A stretch of 64,000 nucleotides of DNA, from positions 3,733-67,732 of the forward strand of contig JACRIR010000135.1 of the NCBI GenBank assembly GCA_016215705.1, read 5' to 3'. How positions within the stretch are numbered: the first letter of the stretch is position 1; each line of letters opens with the position of its first letter. The stretch is from Candidatus Poribacteria bacterium. Lineage in GTDB: Bacteria; Abyssobacteria; SURF-5. Positions 2,157 to 50,200 of this stretch are shown one piece after another. A model generated the notes under the pieces. It saw nothing but the letters and a program-made list of their open reading frames with translations. It ran no database searches and was not told the DNA's origin. The translations under genes were made by a program, and so were the position numbers.

Positions 2157-5100
2157 TCAGGCTTTCACTTTTCTTAGTTTCGCGATATGGCGCACAATCG
2201 CTGTCGCCGAGTCCAGCGACTCATCGAACGATGCTTTTCCAATCGGCATGAGTAACTTCACGCCGCCTTCGATTTGGACTCGGAGCTTCTTGCCGAAAGC
2301 ATTCGACAAACTCACTAGCTCGGGTGACGCAAATCCCTTGTCGGGTGCGGGACGGAAGAGAACGTCGCCTGCAAGTTTCCCGATGAATTCGAGGCCGGCG
2401 GCGGCGCCCAGCACCCGGAGACGAGCTATCTTGAGGAGGTTCTCCGTCTCAAACGGGAGGGGGCCATAGCGGTCTGCTATTTCGTCCGCAATCGCACCGA
2501 TGTCCTCCTCAGTTTTCGCAAGTCCTATTTTCTTGTATAGGTCAAGTTTCTGAGCGGGCGAGGCGACATAGTCATCCGGAATAAAACAGTCCACGTCGAA
2601 CTCCGCCGTCGGCAGCAACAGTTTCTCGGGTTTCTGCCCTTTGAGTTCGGCCACGGCCTCTTCGACAAGCTGGCAGTACATCTCAAATCCGACTGCCGCG
2701 ATGTCGCCGTGCTGCTCAGCCCCAAGGATGTTGCCAGCGCCGCGTATCTCGAGGTCGCGGAGCGCTATCTTGAATCCGGACCCGAGTTCCGAAAACTCCT
2801 CTATAGCCTTGAGCCGTTTTTGGGCCACTTCGCTTAGAGCCTGGCGGCCTGGGATCAACAGATATGCGTATGCCCTGCGCGTGTAACGGCCGACTCGGCC
2901 CCGCAGTTGATATAAATCGGCCAGGCCGAATTTGTCGGCCCGATTGATAAGCATTGTGTTCACATTGGGGATATCGAGGCCGGATTCGATAATCGTGGTG
3001 CAGACCAGAACGTCAATTTGCCGCTCGAGGAATTGCAGCATAACCGACTGGAGTTCGCGCTCGTCCATTTGACCGTGCGCAATCCCGAGCCGCGCCTCGG
3101 GGACAAGCCTCCGCAGGAACGCGGACATCCTGTCTATTGTTTCCACCCGGTTGTGGACAAAGAAGACCTGGCCTTCCCTCGCCATTTCTCTCAAGACAGC
3201 GTCACGGATCAGCTTGTCGTTGAACTCCGTTACGACCGTGATGACGGCAAGCCTGTCCTCTGGAGCAGTGTTTATCACGCTCATGTCGCGTATGCCCATG
3301 AGCGCCATGTGGAGCGTCCGCGGGATGGGGGTCGCCGTTAGCGTGAGCACGTCCACCAGCTTGCGGAGCTTCTTCAGCCGCTCCTTGTGCGCGACCCCAA
3401 AGCGCTGTTCTTCATCAATAATGACGAGTCCCAGGTTCTTGAAAGTGACATCATTCTGTATCAGCCGGTGGGTGCCGATAACTATGTCCACCTTGCCCGC
3501 GGCAAGGTCTGCAATAGCTTTCTTTTGCTCGGCCGCGGTTCTGAAGCGGCTCAGCATCTCGACGCCTACTGGGTAATCAGCAAGGCGCTCGCGGAACGTT
3601 GTGTAGTGCTGTTGGGCCAGTATCGTTGTCGGAACAAGGACGGCGACCTGCCGGGCCTCCATCACGCATTTGAACGCGGCCCGGAGCGCGACTTCCGTTT
3701 TGCCGTAGCCCACGTCTCCGCAAATGAGCCTGTCCATGGGCGAAGGCTTTTCCATGTCCAGCTTTACGTCTTCAATTGCCTGGAGTTGGTCTTCGGTCTC
3801 GCGGTATATGAATGCCTCCTCGAACTCGGCTTGCCAGGGCGCATCGGCCGAAAACGAGATGCCCGGAAGGACCTGCCGCGAGGCGTATAGATCAAGCAGT
3901 TCGCCGGCCATGTCGCGGATCGCGCGTCTCACTCGTTCCTGTACCTTGAACCAGGCTGTCCCGCCGAGTTTGTACAGCTTCGGCGGCTCGTCGTCCGAGC
4001 CAACGTATTTCTGCACAAGGTTCATCATGTTGACCGGGACATACAGCTTGTCGCCGCCGAGATATTCGAGCATGAGGAACTCGCTCTTCTGGTCGGGCAG
4101 ATAGGAAAGTCCCCGATAAATCCCGATGCCATGGTTCACGTGAACGATGTAATCGCCCACGCGCAGGTCGGTGAAATGAGAGATGGGTGCGCCTCCCTTG
4201 AACTTCCTTCGAGGGCGGCGATGTCCGTAGCGTCTGAATATCTCCTGATCGCTTGCGACAACCAGGCTGGTTTCGTCCGCCGCGAATCCGCTGCGCAATC
4301 TGCCAATGATAACCGACAACTGATGTTTCTCGTCAAATCGCGGGCCGGAGTGCGGGTTCATAGCAGCATCCTGGAGAATCTCGAGCAATCGTTTGCTTTC
4401 GCCCTCGTTGTTGCACACGAGCGCGACCTGATATCCTCCGTCGAGCCATTGCCCGAGTTTACTCATGAAAGTGTCAAGCTGGCCGGCGACAGGGTCGAGC
4501 GAGTTGGAATGGACCCCATAGTAATCGAACCGGCGAAAAGTTTCTGAACTCTGTTCGAACCGGCTCAGGCATACCGTCGGCCCTGTGAATTTGCCGAGAA
4601 CCTCGTCAAGGGTGGCCAGTGACTCGCGGGCCAGGTCGTACAAAGGAGCGAGATGCTCCTGGCTTGCTTCTTGCTCTATCAGAAGAGGCTCATCCCACGC
4701 GATAATTGAGTCTTTCGGCAGATAGTCGAGCAAAGAGGCATCACCGGCCGAGTCGACCCACCTGTTGCGCGGCATCATCTCCAGGCGCTCGAGATTCTCA
4801 AAGGAACGCTGCGTCACAACGTCGAATACCCGGATGGATTCGATTTCGTCTCCGAAGAATTCGAGACGCAAAGGGTCTTGCGAGCAAATGGGAAAGACAT
4901 CCACAATACCGCCGCGAATGCTGAACTCGCCGCGCGTCTCCACCATAGTGCATCTGTGGTATCCTCGTTCAACAAGAGTCAGGCTAAGGTCCTCAAGCGA
5001 CCATGTGTCGCCGACTCTTAGGCAGAGGACCGCCGGGGCTACGAGCGCCGGCCTCGGGAGTTTCTGCAGAATTGATCTGATGGGCGCCACTATGATCGGC

Positions 5101-5526: not shown

Positions 5527-7443
5527 TCAGTTCTTCCGGGGGTGTGTCTCGATTCTCGTGCCCAACAGCTTGTTGGCGGCATCGATCACACCCTGCGCGC
5601 TCAGCCCGTATTTCCTGAGAAGCGCCGAACGCGGGCCGTGCTCGATAAATCTGTCAGGGAAACCCAGCGTGGCAAAACTGACGGCCTTCTCCGGCTTCAG
5701 GCGCGTTATGAGTCCCATCAACCCGCTGCCGAATCCACCGGCAACAGTGCCGTCCTCAATGGTTATGATGCTTCGGGCCTTCTCAATGATCCGGCAATAT
5801 GACTTCTCGTCGAGCGGTTTTGCGAAACGCGCATTGACGAGGCCCGCATTTACGCCTTCGCGCGCCAGTTTTTCCACTGCCTGCAAACCGACGTCCACCA
5901 TGGCTCCCAGCGCGACGATCAGCAGGTCGTCGCCCTCCCGGATAACCTCGGGTCGGCCCATTTCAATCGGCAGGATAACCCCTTCCTGTGGAACTGATGC
6001 AGATGAATCACGGGGGTAGCGGATGGCCACGGGATGCGGCTGCTCGGTAGCCCAATCCAGCATTGACTTCAGTTCCACGCCGTTTTTAGGCGCCATGATA
6101 ACGATATTGGGAAGGCTTCGGAGAAACGCGACGTCAAACATTCCGTGATGCGTGGGGCCATCCTGGCCGACGGCGCCCGCCCGGTCAATGGCAAATGTCA
6201 CTGGCAGGTTTTGCAGGCAAACGTCGTGGAATATCTGGTCGTAGGCTCGTTGCAGAAAAGTGGAATAGACCGCAAAAACGGGGCGGAACCCTCCGGCGGC
6301 AAGCCCTGCCGCAAAGGTTACCGCATGCTGTTCGGCGATGCCGACGTCAAAGAAGCGATTCGGGAATTTCTCGGCGAATTCTTTCAGTCCCGTCCCCTCG
6401 GTCATTGCGGCCGTAATTGCGACTGTTTTCGGATTCTTCTTTGCAATCTCGACTATGTGTTTGCCGAAGACCTCGGAGTAGTGGGGGCAATGCTGCGAAT
6501 CGCCAGGCGGAGGCAGTGGCTCGCCTGTTTCTATCCGGAACGCGGGAATGCCGTGAAAGCTGCTGGGCTCTGCCTCGGCGTATTCATATCCTTTTCCCTT
6601 CTTCGTGAGAACATGGAACAAGATCGGGATTCTGAACGCGGCAATTTTTTGCAGGGTCTCGATCAGGATGTCGAGGTCGTGCCCATCGACGGGGCCGACG
6701 TATTTGAATCCCAACTCCTCAAATAATGACCCCGGCTTGAGCAGGCTGGCCGCGCTTTTCTGCAGGCGTTTGGCGGTCTGGAAGAGTTTGGAGCCGACCG
6801 CGGGTATCCGCTTGAGGATATACTCCACGTCGCCTTTGAATCTGTTATATGAGGAAGCAGTTATCAGACGGCTCAAATAGAGCGAGAGGGCGCCCACGCT
6901 TTGGGATATGGCCATCTCATTGTCATTCAAAACGACGATCAGGTCTTTCCCCATGTGGCCGACGTGGTTGAGCGCCTCGAATGCGAGGCCGCCGGTCATC
7001 GAACCGTCTCCGATGAGCGCGATCGTCTTGAAATTCTCTTTTGCGATATCGCGCGCGCACGCCATGCCGGCCATCGAGGAAATACTTGTGCTCGCGTGTC
7101 CGGTGGTAAAGCAGTCAAACTCGCTTTCATCCCGGTTGGGGAACCCGGCCAGCCCGCCAAGTGTGCGGAGCGTCTTGAAATCCTGCCGTCTGCCTGTGAT
7201 GAGTTTGTGCGCATAGGCCTGATGGCCTACGTCGAACACTATCTTGTCGTGCGGACAATTGAACACGTAATGGATTGCGAGTATGAGTTCTACTGCTCCG
7301 AGGCTCGAGGCAAGATGTCCGCCGCGGCAGGAAGTCGTCGCGATTATCTCCTGCCTTATTTCTTCCGCCAACTGCCGGAGTTGACTTACCGAAAGAGCCT
7401 TGAGGTCTTTGGGACTGTCTATTTTGTCGAGAAGCCTTTCCAT
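5527..7443 (-). CDS. dxs: 1-deoxy-D-xylulose-5-phosphate synthase
   Basis: 638 aa. N-terminus is MERLLDKIDSPKDLK. TPP-binding GDGSMTGG, GHASTSIS and a transketolase-like C-terminus are present. Confidence 0.95.
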   Translation of the reverse strand: MERLLDKIDSPKDLKALSVSQLRQLAEEIRQEIIATTSCRGGHLASSLGAVELILAIHYVFNCPHDKIVFDVGHQAYAHKLITGRRQDFKTLRTLGGLAGFPNRDESEFDCFTTGHASTSISSMAGMACARDIAKENFKTIALIGDGSMTGGLAFEALNHVGHMGKDLIVVLNDNEMAISQSVGALSLYLSRLITASSYNRFKGDVEYILKRIPAVGSKLFQTAKRLQKSAASLLKPGSLFEELGFKYVGPVDGHDLDILIETLQKIAAFRIPILFHVLTKKGKGYEYAEAEPSSFHGIPAFRIETGEPLPPPGDSQHCPHYSEVFGKHIVEIAKKNPKTVAITAAMTEGTGLKEFAEKFPNRFFDVGIAEQHAVTFAAGLAAGGFRPVFAVYSTFLQRAYDQIFHDVCLQNLPVTFAIDRAGAVGQDGPTHHGMFDVAFLRSLPNIVIMAPKNGVELKSMLDWATEQPHPVAIRYPRDSSASVPQEGVILPIEMGRPEVIREGDDLLIVALGAMVDVGLQAVEKLAREGVNAGLVNARFAKPLDEKSYCRIIEKARSIITIEDGTVAGGFGSGLMGLITRLKPEKAVSFATLGFPDRFIEHGPRSALLRKYGLSAQGVIDAANKLLGTRIETHPRKN

Positions 7444-10447: not shown

Positions 10448-10972
10448 GTGGAGCAACGGACCCAGGATACTGCAGGGGCCTTAACCCGAATTGTGCGTGA
10501 ACACCGGAAAGCGGTGTTTGCCGTGGCTTATGCGAAACTCCGGAATAGTCACGACGCCGAGGACATCACGCAGGACGTGTTCGTCGAGGCGTATCGGAAC
10601 GCTCATAAGCTGAAGAATCTGGAGAAAGTCGCCTCGTGGCTCTATAAGGCGACAGTCTACCGTTGCATAGACCACGTGCGCAAGAGTTCGAGGCGCGAGA
10701 AGCGCGAAGCCACATTCATGGAGTTTGCTCTTGCTGAGCCGCCGCCCGACCCGCAGATCGAAGATGAAAAATATTCCGCAGTTGTGCGGGCCATCGATAA
10801 GCTTCCGGAAGACATGCGTGTGGTTATCATGCTCAAGCATTTCGCCGGGCTCTCATATGACGACATCTCGAAGATGACCGGACTCTCGAAAACTACGATT
10901 GACGGCCGTCTCCGCACCGGGAAGAAGCAGTTGAGGCAGCGGCTTGCCGAAATAATGGATGAGTTAAGGTGA
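10448..10972 (+). CDS. ECF-type RNA polymerase sigma factor
   Basis: 174 aa with region 2 (DAEDITQDVFVEAYRN) and region 4 HTH (LSYDDISKMTGLSKTTIDGRLRTGKKQLRQ). GTG start. Stop TGA at 10970-10972 overlaps the next gene's start. Confidence 0.9.
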   Translation: MEQRTQDTAGALTRIVREHRKAVFAVAYAKLRNSHDAEDITQDVFVEAYRNAHKLKNLEKVASWLYKATVYRCIDHVRKSSRREKREATFMEFALAEPPPDPQIEDEKYSAVVRAIDKLPEDMRVVIMLKHFAGLSYDDISKMTGLSKTTIDGRLRTGKKQLRQRLAEIMDELR

Positions 10973-15670: not shown

Positions 15671-15719
15671 TTATCGTTGTGGTAAAGAATCAAAATGGAG
15701 GGGAAGAGACTATATTCTT

Positions 15720-23077: not shown

Positions 23078-24157
23078 TTATTGCATGTCTTTTACGCAGC
23101 GGAATCCGATGTCGGCGCTGCTTCCAACAGGTCTGAAATACATTCTGCGAGAGGTTCTCGCTCCGTCGGCGCTATAGAACCATGAGCCGCCGCGGATGAC
23201 CTTGAACTCACCGGTCTCGGGGCCTGTAGGGCCCGTGGGAGGGCTGACCTTGTAGTAGTCTTTGCCCCACCAATCGAAGCACCACTCCCACACATTGCCG
23301 GCCATGTCCTCGACTGCGTAGACGCTTCTGCCGCCGGCAAAGCTGCCCACCGGGGCGGCCTTCTTCTGGTTGTCGCTGAGGGACGCATTGCTCCACATGA
23401 GGCCGGCGCTGCTATCGGCCACATTTGCCAGCGCTATGGTGGGCTCGGCGTTTCCCCACGGATACACCCGGCCGTCGGTTCCTCGCGCCGCTTTTTCCCA
23501 TTCAGACTCGGTAGGCAGTCGCTTTCCGGCCCACAGGGCATATGCGTTTGCATCATTCCAACTTACGCAGGCCACGGGATAGTTGGACATGTTATCTGCA
23601 TTCGAGTCGGCGCCGTAAGGATGTTTCCATGTGGGCAAGGAGGCGTTTGAGGAGGCAGCCATTTCGGCGTCAGTGATGTAGCCGGTGGCATCCACGAACT
23701 TCTTGAACTGCTCGTTTGTAACTTCATATTTGTCGATGTAGAACCCGCGAAGACATACACCGTGAACGGGCGACTCATCTGGCTGCCCCGCTTCGGGCGT
23801 ATTCCCCATGGTGAACGGGCCTGCTGCCACGTACACCATGCCCTCGGGAGCGGCCGCCATGCGCGCCTGAATCACTTGTGGCGCATCGACGGCGCACTGG
23901 CCGGTGGAAGGAGGAGGCGCCGGGGGAGCTGCAAGCGGCTCGGTTCTGACGGGAGCGGACGGCGCTTGCGTCGCCATCTCGCGACGTTTAGATTCGGCTT
24001 CTTTCGCGATCTTTGTTTGTTCGGTAGTCTGTTGCTCTTCTTCGCTCTTTCGTTCTTTATCAATGGATCTCTGGTAGAAGAGACCACCGATGACCAAGAG
24101 GACGATGACTACCGCGATCGCGATAACCGTGGACTGCTTGCCTTGTTTTTCTTCCAT
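23078..24157 (-). CDS. membrane-anchored FGE-fold (SUMF1/EgtB/PvdO family) protein, paralogue of 19156..20532
   Basis: GAGGGG RBS. TM anchor is VIAIAVVIVLLVIGGLFY, followed by a charged linker and a Pro-rich stretch. It shares the motifs of the other copy (FYIDKYEVTNEQFKKFV, VSWNDANAYALW, PTESEWEKAARG, MAGNVWEW, RGGSW, GFRC). Confidence 0.85.
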   Translation of the reverse strand: MEEKQGKQSTVIAIAVVIVLLVIGGLFYQRSIDKERKSEEEQQTTEQTKIAKEAESKRREMATQAPSAPVRTEPLAAPPAPPPSTGQCAVDAPQVIQARMAAAPEGMVYVAAGPFTMGNTPEAGQPDESPVHGVCLRGFYIDKYEVTNEQFKKFVDATGYITDAEMAASSNASLPTWKHPYGADSNADNMSNYPVACVSWNDANAYALWAGKRLPTESEWEKAARGTDGRVYPWGNAEPTIALANVADSSAGLMWSNASLSDNQKKAAPVGSFAGGRSVYAVEDMAGNVWEWCFDWWGKDYYKVSPPTGPTGPETGEFKVIRGGSWFYSADGARTSRRMYFRPVGSSADIGFRCVKDMQ

Positions 24158-24261
24158 GGTCGAATCCCCTCAAAGTTTACCCGGACCCCCAGTGCAACTG
24201 TACTATCTATACTATCCGCAAAAATGCGGAATTGCAAGTGAGAGCGCTCGTAAGGGTCAAA

Positions 24262-24555
24262 TCAATTTGGAGAGAGGAACTGTCCCGTAATTCCGCAGAC
24301 GCGAATTCGCAGGAGCAAGGCGAAAATGGGGCGCAAACAGAATCTCCGGATGATCGCGAAATCCACGTGGGCGCGGAATAAGTACAGCTTGAAAGCGTTG
24401 TTCAGCAAGTGCACGATCGCCACCATTAGAACCGCGAGTTTCACGTCATAGAAGATTGCGAACACCGGGGTCAGTGCGGTGCCGAGTCCGAAGCCTGTGA
24501 GAAGAGTCAGCACGGCCACGGGAAGCGTTACGGCAACGGTGACAATCGTCTCCAT
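24262..24555 (-). pseudogene. TSUP (TauE/SafE) family permease, N-terminal fragment only
   Basis: The 97 aa (LLTGFGLGTALTPVFAIFYDVKLAVLMVAIVHLLNNAFKLYLFRAHVD) resemble the first ~3 TM of an ~8-TM permease. The ORF ends at a TGA 104 nt before the next gene, and no other frame continues as membrane protein. Confidence 0.45.
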
Positions 24556-24576
24556 AAGGTATTTTATCTCCTCGCT

Positions 24577-24885
24577 TCATTGTGCCTTTTCCTCAAGCAC
24601 TTCTTCAACCAGTTCCCGGATTTTTTCTTTGGCCTGTTCGAGGGCCCGCTTGCCTTTGGGCGTTGCGGCGTAATACTTGCGTATTTTGCCGCGAACAATC
24701 TCTCTCTCACAGGAAAGAAGTCGCTCGCGCTCCATCCGGTGAAGCAAAGGATAGAGCATGCCCGGGCTCAGGCGATATCCGTGCCGCCGCAGTTCTTTGA
24801 GCAAGGCGACCCCGTAGACTCGTTCCTTCGAGGCATGATAGAGCACATGGACTCGCACGGACCCTCGCAGGAATTCTTTTATCAT
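24577..24885 (-). CDS. PadR-family transcriptional regulator
   Basis: 102 aa with a winged HTH typical of PadR (YGVALLKELRRHGYRLSPGMLYPLLHRMERERLL...KIRKYYAATPKG). Confidence 0.9.
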   Translation of the reverse strand: MIKEFLRGSVRVHVLYHASKERVYGVALLKELRRHGYRLSPGMLYPLLHRMERERLLSCEREIVRGKIRKYYAATPKGKRALEQAKEKIRELVEEVLEEKAQ

Positions 24886-48255: not shown

Positions 48256-48386
48256 AGGAAGGGGGAACAAGCGGAGAAAGGGTCGAAAGGGGAAAAGGGG
48301 CAAAAGAGAGCCGAGAGGAACAAACTAAAGCGGCAGTTTCGGGTCACAGGAATTTGGAAACCCACTACCGAGAAAAGGGGCGGAAT

Positions 48387-48704
48387 ATGCAAGAACCACT
48401 GCGTGTGCCTCCGAGTGAGGCTCGAGGGAAGGTCAAATCAGGCGACGCGCTGCTCGTATGCGCATACTCAGACGCGGAGATGTTCAAGAGCATGCATTTG
48501 GAGGGCGCGATCTCGCTCCAGGAGTTCGAGTCGAAAGTGGCTGCGTTGCCGAAGACCCAGGAAATCGTCTTCTACTGCGCTTGACCCAATGAGCGCAGTG
48601 CCGCCGGTCAGGCGGCAAAGTATCTCGAAAAAGGATACACTAATGCAAAGGCTCTCGGCGGCGGTGTCGAAGCGTGGAGGAAGGCGGGTTTTCCGCTCGT
48701 CTAG
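48387..48704 (+). CDS. single-domain rhodanese-like protein with an in-frame TGA (48582-48584): candidate selenoprotein, otherwise a pseudogene
   Basis: The listed ORF stops at TGA after ...KTQEIVFYCA. The same frame continues PNERSAAGQAAKYLEKGYTNAKALGGGVEAWRKAGFPLV* (TAG 48702-48704), which is the conserved second half of a ~105-aa rhodanese. The TGA lies inside the active-site loop. Confidence 0.55.
48599..48617 (+). promoter_or_regulatory. SECIS-like hairpin downstream of the in-frame UGA
   Basis: Perfect 7-bp stem UGCCGCC/GGCGGCA with loop GGUCA. The stem starts 14 nt and the loop 21 nt after the UGA. Confidence 0.4.
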
Positions 48705-48715
48705 CTTGACGGGAG

Positions 48716-50200
48716 TCATTGTTTGACAAATGACCGCGCCTGGCCGCTCGTAATCACGTTGAGCGGCTGCTGGCTCAAATCCGCTCCGCGCACGCGCCAA
48801 AACACCTGCCGTCCGGCCGGAATGCGGTTCCAAATCGCCGCCGGCATCGCCCAGCTTGTCGCCGTGACGGTCATCCGCAGATTCTCGCGCGTCGACCAGA
48901 ACGGCGTGAAGGTCGGAGCGAGACTCAGGTCCACCGCGAATCCGTTGTTTGTTCCACCATCCGGCGTCCACGCAAACGTTGGGGGAGAAGTCAATACGGA
49001 CAGGTCTGCCGGCGATTGGAGAGTGATTGCCGCAAGCGTGCTGACGGTCGTTAAGCGATAGATTGTCCCGTCCACCGGGGATGAGTGCCCAAGATAGAGT
49101 TCACCCGCCTCGTCCTCACCAAAAGTTGTGATCGCGAGTGCCGTGTCCAGCATCGGGACTACTGTCCATCCACCAAGTCCGTCCGGAACCGCGCCCGAAA
49201 TTAATCCCGAGCAGAAATCGGCGAAGAAATATATCCCGAAAAGGTCGGGGAAGTCGGCCCCTCTGTATCGGTAACCGCCGGTGATGGAGCATCCGCCCGT
49301 GAGGTGGCTGTATTCCAGGATGGGCAGGGTCAATGTTCCGTCATTGCAGGCCGTTGTAGGATTGAAGCAATGATTACCCTCCATGAATCGCCACCCATAG
49401 TTCTCGCCACCCACGCTCGAGGCAGGCTGAAAATCAATTTCCTCCCACATATCCTGCCCAACATCCGCAATGAACATATCGCCGGTCAGCCGGTCGAACG
49501 TGAACCGCCACGGGTTGCGCAACCCGAGCGCCCAGGTTTCTCCACGCGCACCCTGAATCCCGACAAAGGGATTGCCGGCAGGGGTCGCATAAGGAACAGC
49601 GCTGTCGACGTCGATGCGGAGCATCTTCCCCAGGATCGTGTCCAGGCTCTGGGCGTTATTGAAAGGGTCACCCGCCGAGCCGCCGTCTCCCATGCCGATA
49701 TAGAGGAATCCGTCGGGTCCGAATTGGAGCTGGCCGCCATTATGATTTGCGAATGGTTGCTGTTGCGTAAGCACAATAATCGCCGAATTCGGATTGGCAA
49801 CATTCGGATTTGCCGAAACGGAATAACGCGCTACAACCGTGTCGCCGTTAACGTCCGTGTAGTCGATGAAGAAGAAACCATTGATTGCATAGTTCGGGTG
49901 GAATGCGACACTGAACAGTCCGCGCTCGCCGCCTGTCGATACAAGCGTTCTGATGTCCAGGAATGGAGTCGCCAACACTTGCGTACCATCAAAAACCACA
50001 ATTCGCCCGTCCTGAAGTGTAATAAAAAGCCTGCCGGAACCGTCACCCGCATTGGTAATATATGTTACGTTTGGCACGCCGGTAGCAATTGGCTGCAACT
50101 GCAAGACGGTTGCAGATTGCGCGCTTCCCGAAATCAGCAGAAGCGCAACACACACTGACAACCCAACCCACTTTCTCATTTCCATGAACTGCGTATTCAT
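48716..50200 (-). CDS. secreted PQQ-dependent sugar (glucose/sorbosone) dehydrogenase-like beta-propeller with a shared C-terminal module
   Basis: Signal peptide is WVGLSVCVALLLISGSAQSA. GSDH motifs are NHNGGQLQFGPDGFLYIGMGDGG and HLTGGCSITGGYRYRG. The last 103 aa match the C-terminus of 13875..15368. The start could be an internal Met. Confidence 0.85.
   Translation of the reverse strand: MNTQFMEMRKWVGLSVCVALLLISGSAQSATVLQLQPIATGVPNVTYITNAGDGSGRLFITLQDGRIVVFDGTQVLATPFLDIRTLVSTGGERGLFSVAFHPNYAINGFFFIDYTDVNGDTVVARYSVSANPNVANPNSAIIVLTQQQPFANHNGGQLQFGPDGFLYIGMGDGGSAGDPFNNAQSLDTILGKMLRIDVDSAVPYATPAGNPFVGIQGARGETWALGLRNPWRFTFDRLTGDMFIADVGQDMWEEIDFQPASSVGGENYGWRFMEGNHCFNPTTACNDGTLTLPILEYSHLTGGCSITGGYRYRGADFPDLFGIYFFADFCSGLISGAVPDGLGGWTVVPMLDTALAITTFGEDEAGELYLGHSSPVDGTIYRLTTVSTLAAITLQSPADLSVLTSPPTFAWTPDGGTNNGFAVDLSLAPTFTPFWSTRENLRMTVTATSWAMPAAIWNRIPAGRQVFWRVRGADLSQQPLNVITSGQARSFVKQ

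Follow-up and report, generated by a model that had tools for sequence, protein, structure and literature searches.

Positions 48387-48704 on the forward strand of contig JACRIR010000135.1, counted within the 64-kb stretch of DNA analysed here (the window), hold a gene for a small rhodanese. Its reading frame is interrupted by an in-frame UGA codon in the active-site loop, and a hairpin lies shortly downstream of this codon within the coding sequence. We consider it highly probable that this is an intact, genuine selenoprotein gene in which UGA is read as selenocysteine (Sec), because the TGA is conserved among orthologues, the sequence past it evolves as coding sequence does, the hairpin covaries, homologues carry Cys at the same column and a rhodanese selenoprotein family with Cys-x-Sec (CxU) spacing is already known. 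A sequence-only reading of the window had proposed this candidate, with Sec two residues after the loop Cys and a hairpin resembling a bacterial selenocysteine insertion sequence (SECIS), and the proposal was supported by every test that we ran. The features of the locus are as follows.

48376..48380 (+), Shine-Dalgarno-like AAGGG, 6 nt 5′ of the ATG at 48387, read directly from the sequence
48387..48704 (+), full predicted selenoprotein gene, 105 residues, single rhodanese domain, Sec as residue 66, ending with TAG at 48702-48704
48387-48389 (+), start codon ATG, whose Met is also the first residue of homologues
48459..48461 (+), codon of Cys25 in the LLVCAY motif, an invariant column in alignments A1 and A2
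48576..48578 (+), TGC codon of Cys64, which opens the active-site loop and is the canonical catalytic Cys of rhodaneses, aligned to that of solved structures
48579-48581 (+), GCT codon of Ala65
48582..48584 (+), in-frame UGA, predicted Sec66, with TGA conserved in orthologues and Cys at this column in 38 distant homologues
48599..48617 (+), putative bacterial SECIS hairpin within the coding sequence, arms 48599-48605 and 48611-48617, loop GGUCA at 48606-48610

The gene caller ends the open reading frame (ORF) at the UGA (48387-48584, 65 residues, with QEIVFYCA as the last letters before the TGA). Past TGA 48582-48584 the same frame continues for 39 further codons, PNERSAAGQAAKYLEKGYTNAKALGGGVEAWRKAGFPLV, up to the TAG at 48702-48704. 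The read-through protein matches the Pfam family PF00581 (Rhodanese) over residues 16-99 and model positions 9-101/102, with an E-value of 1.6e-9 and a score of 38.6 bits against a cutoff of 22.2. Since this match spans the read-through and covers nearly the whole domain model, a 65-residue product would be left without the end of the active-site loop and without the last third of the domain. The positions that the sequence-only reading gave for the end of the ORF and for the 39 codons all proved exact, as did its placement of the TGA two residues after the loop Cys (TGC 48576-48578, GCT, TGA), and the Pfam match bears out its view that the conserved second half of a rhodanese lies past the TGA. 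The gene is monocistronic, with a uracil-DNA glycosylase gene on one side and a convergent glucose/sorbosone dehydrogenase-like gene on the other. Of the 46 likely genes in the window, about 20 stop at TGA, among them the sigma-factor gene ending at 10970-10972 that had been cited as an example of ordinary termination, and reassignment of TGA is therefore not genome-wide.

The hairpin was confirmed at 48599-48617, with its loop at the distance from the UGA that had been reported. A perfect 7-bp stem (UGCCGCC with GGCGGCA) encloses the 5-nt loop GGUCA at an energy of -14.0 kcal/mol; the hairpin starts 14 nt and the loop 21 nt past the TGA. The published model of bacterial SECIS elements specifies 3-9 nt for the apical loop, 4-16 bp for the upper stem, a G among the first two loop bases, a UGA-to-loop distance of 16-37 nt and a minimum free energy (the MFE) no higher than -7.5 kcal/mol (PMC13188914). 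With its 7-bp stem, GG-start loop, 21-nt spacing and energy, the window hairpin passes all of these criteria, and so do 66 of 78 orthologues under a strict test that allows no bulge. Searching the whole window against Rfam at gathering thresholds returned no match, and a permissive scan of 48300-48800 returned matches at chance level only; bacterial SECIS elements are poorly covered by Rfam, so this result is neutral. In the MFE fold of 48582-48650, a second, weaker hairpin (GUAUC...GAUAC, 48621-48639) is predicted 3′ of the putative SECIS stem, and it is made of conserved Tyr and Gly-Tyr codons.

Orthologous loci were collected by scanning one genome per GTDB species, which gave 237 relatives; the best 80 of these loci were read and, together with loci from protein look-ups and the window itself, yielded 81 distinct sequences. 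TGA occupies the Sec column in 79 of the 81, and TAA, TAG and TGG occur in none. One of the two remaining cases, from a Deferrisomatales metagenome-assembled genome (MAG), has the Ser codon TCC (L006/L074, 3198-3230). In the other, L042, the regular expression caught a neighbouring rhodanese gene, and the locus's own orthologue reads CA*. The genomes that carry the TGA are labelled Thermodesulfobacteriota, Nitrospirota, Candidatus Brocadia and other Planctomycetota, Acidobacteriota, Binatia and others; they include the Olavius Delta 1 symbiont (locus L036), whose protein is 62% identical to that of the window. The orthologues keep the same gene architecture. At the protein level, about 60 homologues returned by the search end at the same point (...FYCA), and further full-length homologues were also returned.

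We compared the codon-position pattern of divergence on both sides of the UGA as mean pairwise values over 78 distinct orthologues. Past the TGA (34 codons, with those of the hairpin excluded) divergence at codon positions 1/2/3 is 0.28/0.31/0.62, and ahead of the Cys (25 codons) it is 0.35/0.21/0.63. The 39 downstream codons are conserved as protein, including a GGV..W motif. The closest relative is L002, with a BLASTP identity of 83% for the 65 residues ahead of the UGA and a tblastn identity of 81% for all 105; past the TGA, 13 of its differences from the window are synonymous and 8 non-synonymous, and none disturbs the frame. L002 shares HSP20 and SMC genes as neighbours with the window, and only L002/L007 is syntenic with it. 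These patterns show that the sequence past the UGA evolves as coding sequence, with the same periodicity as upstream, and is translated.

The hairpin is conserved in register among the TGA-containing orthologues, which are gap-free from the TGA onward (alignment A3), and it covaries. Its five inner pairs form in 74-78 of 78 sequences and define a family-wide core, 48601-48605 with 48611-48615, and RNAalifold independently predicts four inner pairs. Columns 21 and 33 are the third positions of two Ala codons, both synonymous: they pair as UA in 54 sequences, CG in 14, GC in 3 and UG in 4, and are unpaired in 3. The covariation score of 0.224 compares with 0.142 ± 0.013 for shuffled alignments, and none of 500 shuffles reaches 0.224. 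Sliding the 3′ partner by 1-3 columns lowers pairing from 86% to 22-52%. Within the loop, all sequences have G as the second base, and 76 of 79 have U as the next. The third positions of the codons GCC, GGU and CNG are nearly frozen, with divergences of 0.05, 0.07 and 0.00 as compared with about 0.65 elsewhere. The encoded amino acids follow the same pattern: the Ala-Gly at the stem-loop junction is fixed in the Sec forms (74 and 70 of 80), whereas the two positions vary in Cys relatives (Val, Ala, Thr, Ile or Leu at one, Ala, Glu, Gly or Arg at the other), a contrast to which phylogeny contributes, the Cys forms being more distant relatives. We conclude that selection acts on the hairpin at the RNA level and that the hairpin is tied to the TGA.

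We further typed the Cys64 and Sec66 columns in a wider set of proteins. A hidden Markov model (HMM) search of 1.84 billion cluster representatives gave 928 proteins at E ≤ 1e-10, and among the best 150 of these, which were inspected, 97 domains share the Cys of LLVCAY. Of these 97, 38 read C-x-C, 23 C-x-UGA (20 truncated, 3 written with W), 15 C-x-S, 5 U-x-U (3 truncated at the first UGA, 2 written W-x-W) and 4 C-x-D. Cys is thus found at the Sec column in 38 more distant homologues and Ser in others, and with the 38 C-x-C relatives the classical Sec/Cys correspondence holds.

The Cys64 codon itself is TGC or TGT in 72 of the 81 orthologue sequences and TGA in 9, the U-x-U forms. The second TGA at the catalytic Cys codon in these nine sequences matches the UxU form reported in 2007, in which Olavius symbionts had evolved a second Sec (PMC1976440). 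U-x-U loci are L003/L004/L005, L022, L041, L053, L069, L071, L077 and L080, and in these one hairpin would serve Sec-x-Sec; the Desulfosarcinaceae MAG locus L004, for example, reads ttt tac TGA gca TGA at 3280-3294. In the L003-L005 group the loop differs (AGUUU), and the proteins start with a segment that resembles a signal peptide.

Trp at the Sec column of orthologues would speak for a reading other than Sec, as the sequence-only reading had pointed out. Trp (or Trp-x-Trp) does stand there in the full-length database proteins P0001-P0011, P0019, P0213, P0243 and P0350. All of these W proteins lie on short contigs, and the DNA of the three that were looked up (P0001, P0009 and P0002) has TGA; translation with code 11 does not reproduce the deposited proteins. 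False-Trp DNA loci are L001 (322-324), L088 and L089. The Trp seen in the databases at the Sec column is an artefact of gene calls made with genetic code 4, and the objection falls for all three checked DNAs. Such false Trp could mislead alignment-based tests for selenoproteins.

Several observations weigh against reading the UGA as Sec or limit how far that reading reaches. In a simple test, 101 of the 2105 TGA triplets in the window (4.8%) precede a hairpin that passes the SECIS criteria, so the hairpin alone is modest to weak evidence, and it is conservation among orthologues that gives it strength. The hairpin overlaps codons for Ala-Ala-Gly-Gln-Ala-Ala and is partly palindromic for protein reasons. 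Its outer two pairs are not conserved, being paired in 35 and 53 of 79 distinct sequences (34 and 53 of 78 by pair-counting on the 78-sequence set). The one Ser-form DNA examined (L006/L074) retains a GCCGCC-GGCGA-GGCGGC palindrome, lacking the loop U, which may be a relic of a lost SECIS. As the sequence-only reading had noted, Sec machinery is not visible in the window: there is no tRNA gene in the 64 kb, hence no tRNA-Sec there, and no SelA, SelB or SelD among the 40 window ORFs scanned against Pfam, which proved to be housekeeping genes only. Our literature search found no paper on Sec in Hydrogenedentota or Abyssobacteria, the host lineage discussed below. When the neighbouring ORFs of about 80 loci were clustered, no conserved neighbour or operon partner emerged; the commonest real neighbour, QueF-like by eye, occurs in 8 loci only, and the gene context thus holds no clue to function. 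The reviews that list the CxU rhodanese family give it as predicted only (PMC9312934, PMC13188914), and the Cys64-Sec66 chemistry suggested further below is deduced only from the position of the motif.

With these points in view, we weighed four other explanations. A pseudogene, in which a recent nonsense mutation (e.g. TGC or TGG to TGA) happened to fall ahead of a coincidental hairpin, would agree with the 65-residue gene that standard callers produce, with the lack of visible Sec machinery in the window and with the 4.8% of TGA triplets that have such a hairpin by chance. It is very unlikely in view of the same TGA in nearly all orthologue sequences from several phyla, the open downstream frame with its coding periodicity, the 13 synonymous and 8 non-synonymous differences of L002 without a frame break and the covariation of the hairpin. 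A sequencing or assembly error at 48582-48584 might be suspected in a window from a metagenome-derived contig. We regard it as vanishingly unlikely, as a separately assembled Logan contig from SRR12113407 matches the window with 100% identity along 421 nt that include the TGA, and the same codon occurs in orthologues from 79 other assemblies. The downstream coding signal, the intact frame of L002 and the identical Logan contig together exclude a recent pseudogene or an assembly error; the two alternatives that had been left standing beside the selenoprotein are thereby effectively excluded, and the earlier judgement that random truncation is improbable is upheld.

Decoding of UGA as Trp or Gly, be it under an alternative code (4 or 25) or by near-cognate read-through that is non-specific, would fit the many database homologues with W at this column; but the three that were checked are TGA in the DNA and derive from code-4 calls on short contigs, no orthologue has TGG, TGA ends about 20 of the 46 likely genes of the window, distant homologues have Cys and not Trp or Gly, and a conserved hairpin of the SelB-binding type lies at the right distance. 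This explanation is extremely unlikely. Equally hard to credit is a real 65-residue product with the hairpin as a terminator or attenuator or as part of an independent small ORF. A terminator-like stem at 48696-48713 and the position of a monocistronic gene converging on the next one could be cited in its favour. Such a product would end inside the active-site loop and lack about one third of the rhodanese fold, the 39 downstream codons are conserved as protein including GGV..W, no U-tract follows the hairpin, and the single terminator-like match is at chance level (1 found, 1.1 expected). Decoding of the UGA as Sec is the reading we retain in the following.

By motif and by literature description, the gene fits the CxU rhodanese selenoprotein, a family that has been predicted since 2005-2007. 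Zhang and Gladyshev reported in 2007 a 'rhodanese-related sulfurtransferase' selenoprotein family with 8 genes in Olavius symbionts (PMC1976440), and reviews of 2022 and 2026 list a rhodanese CxU form, credited to the bSECISearch paper (Zhang and Gladyshev 2005, Bioinformatics), which first predicted it, and linked to the NCBIfam model NF041203 (PMC9312934, PMC13188914). The statement that rhodaneses are a reported prokaryotic selenoprotein family was thus well founded. Like the described form, the window gene encodes one rhodanese domain in which Sec follows the loop Cys by two residues, and it has its putative SECIS in the coding sequence downstream; its clade contains U-x-U variants (9 of 81), and the Olavius Delta 1 locus L036 is orthologous. 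It differs in that no Cys homologues were found in the 2007 dataset (PMC1976440), whereas many C-x-C relatives exist here, and in its host, which belongs to Hydrogenedentota/Abyssobacteria and not to Deltaproteobacteria. The window gene accordingly appears to be a member of an already predicted kind of selenoprotein in a new host phylum.

The best NCBIfam match is indeed NF041203 (rhodanese_LYCAU, 'rhodanese-related (seleno)protein'), which has the Y-C-A-U motif in common with the window protein and describes a domain of similar length. Against its cutoff of 115 bits, the window protein reaches 54.4 bits when the Sec is written as X and 61.2 bits when it is written as C; ten further proteins, clade members and Cys homologues with the Olavius one among them, reach 46-63 bits. 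Proteins with the FYCAU and LLVCAY motifs thus fall below the equivalog cutoff of this model and fail its formal test. We therefore place the window gene, on these scores and motifs, in a sister clade to NF041203 for which there is no trusted model, and it is for want of such a model that NCBI and JGI name the truncated ORFs 'hypothetical protein' or 65-residue 'sulfurtransferase'. It is a tentative proposal, somewhat short of an even call, that this FYCAU/LLVCAY clade is a distinct group of rhodanese selenoproteins, marked by Cys25, Cys64 and Sec66 and by repeated replacement of Cys64 by Sec, and that the window gives the first indication of UGA-encoded Sec in Hydrogenedentota/Abyssobacteria.

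The likeness of the loop to the SECIS of E. coli fdhF, which the sequence-only reading had pointed out, is correct. The fdhF sequence UGA CAC GGC CCA UCG GUU GCA GGU CUG CAC is present under fdhF at 100% identity in 5419 of 5426 E. coli genomes. Both elements are stem-loops in the coding sequence shortly past the UGA with a loop that begins GGUC, and both keep the codon register GCN GGU CNG, as GCA GGU CUG in fdhF and GCC GGU CAG in the window; GCC GGU CUG occurs in 10 orthologues of the window gene. The loop starts 18 nt past the UGA in fdhF and 21 nt past it in the window. In the fdhF hairpin an A-U pair closes a loop of four bases and a U bulges out of the stem, whereas the window hairpin has a five-base loop, is closed by C-G and has no bulge.

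Among solved rhodaneses (6mxv, BH2092 (3nhv/3o3w), Alr3790, GlpE (1gmx) and YgaP), which have the same fold and likewise carry their catalytic Cys behind a hydrophobic strand, 6mxv is closest by sequence (E 1e-16 with the family profile). The window protein differs from them in three respects: its active-site loop is one residue longer than C-x-x-G-x-R-[ST], seen as a gap in the alignment with 6mxv, this loop has Glu where basic residues are usual, and in place of the D-x-R motif the protein has Cys for Asp and Tyr for Arg. Past the Sec, Pro at U+1, Glu at U+3 (76 of 80) and Ser or Thr at U+5 are conserved. The sequence-only reading had described a C-x-U spacing within a loop of C-X5-R length; the spacing stands, and the C-X5-R reading does not. 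The loop has seven residues from Cys to helix as in Cdc25 and Acr2, and Arg70 of the window protein occupies the C-X5-R position, but this position (U+4) is Ala in 45, Lys in 8, Gly in 8, His in 6 and Arg in only 5 of 80 orthologues, and a profile search of PDB with E-values up to 1 returned no Cdc25 or Acr2 chain. We therefore rejected a Cdc25/Acr2-like C-X5-R loop and regard the likeness as one of loop length only.

Cys25, present in 82 of 83 proteins derived from the loci, occurs in the clade whether the Sec column holds Sec, Cys or Ser. In the HMMER alignment it falls on the Asp of LLIDTR (6mxv), the Asp of D-x-R, with Tyr in the place of Arg. On account of this placement, an equivalence to the 'backdoor' Cys of Cdc25, which lies one alignment position after Cys25, is no more than a tentative lead. 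Cys25 may be a third redox partner.

By analogy with the established bacterial mechanism, in which SelB-GTP delivers Sec-tRNA, the ribosome would insert Sec at codon 66: SelB, loaded with Sec-tRNA(Sec), should bind the hairpin at 48599-48617, upon which the UGA at 48582-48584 would be decoded as Sec and would not terminate translation. The product would be a 105-residue single-domain rhodanese with the loop Cys64-Ala65-Sec66-Pro-x-Glu-x-Ser. In this loop Cys64 would be the usual persulfide-carrying or nucleophilic rhodanese Cys, and Sec66 a second redox-active residue that could resolve or attack the Cys64 adduct through a Cys64-Sec66 selenenylsulfide. This centre might be reduced through Cys25 and act on a sulfur or selenium adduct. 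Sec or Cys two residues after Cys64, the repeated change of Cys64 to Sec and the nearly invariant Cys25 point to a two-residue redox centre, and the longer, acidic loop (Glu at U+3) argues against a simple enzyme that binds the thiosulfate anion. The protein would then be a redox-active carrier or reductase of sulfur (or selenium) and not a plain thiosulfate sulfurtransferase; our confidence in the Cys64-Sec66 redox function is low to moderate.

The window is an ordinary chromosomal region with mfd, dxs, ispA, xseA, relA/spoT, recJ, ispH, cmk, ilvD, smc and ftsY, and it also carries aldehyde:ferredoxin oxidoreductase and 2-oxoacid dehydrogenase genes. The best named relatives of its Dxs (5527-7443, - strand) come from a Candidatus Hydrogenedentota MAG (80%) and from Candidatus Abyssobacteria SURF_5/SURF_17 (76-77%). 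Judged by these Dxs relatives, the contig comes from Candidatus Hydrogenedentota, a little-studied phylum, and we assign the host to its class Abyssobacteria. The gene marks this lineage as a likely user of Sec.

In public databases the gene and dozens of its orthologues stand wrongly as 65-residue 'hypothetical proteins' or as full-length proteins with a false Trp, and neither form shows Sec. Since NF041203 does not reach the clade, annotation pipelines will keep missing the gene. The approximately 80 Sec forms, set beside their Cys and Ser relatives, show plainly how a SECIS within a gene constrains synonymous sites and two amino acids (Ala-Gly), and the Sec, Cys and Ser variants provide a defined set for asking why Sec lies two residues from the catalytic Cys.

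Directly downstream of the CxU rhodanese in L042, a Thermodesulfobacteriota MAG, lies a second rhodanese-domain gene (3340-4182). In this gene the TGA is at the catalytic Cys itself (IIVY-TGA-AVGGRS), and a strong stem (-27.9 kcal/mol over 60 nt) is predicted past it; the protein is extended at its C-terminus by a long helical segment. It has the look of another form of rhodanese selenoprotein, UxxG.

We also screened the window for other selenoprotein genes among ORFs that end in TGA and have a long in-frame extension, and none was convincing. The pair at 15695/16019 was rejected because it represents junk sequence upstream of the real start, and the pair at 24262-24885 (- strand) because a PadR-like gene is followed there by a separate truncated membrane-protein fragment. 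At 24109-24885 (- strand) an ORF of 102 residues, by eye a PadR-like regulator, ends in TGA, and the same frame past it encodes a membrane-protein fragment of about 97 residues that looks like a truncated TauE/SafE-type transporter; we take these for two separate genes, of which the second is probably a remnant, and not for a selenoprotein.

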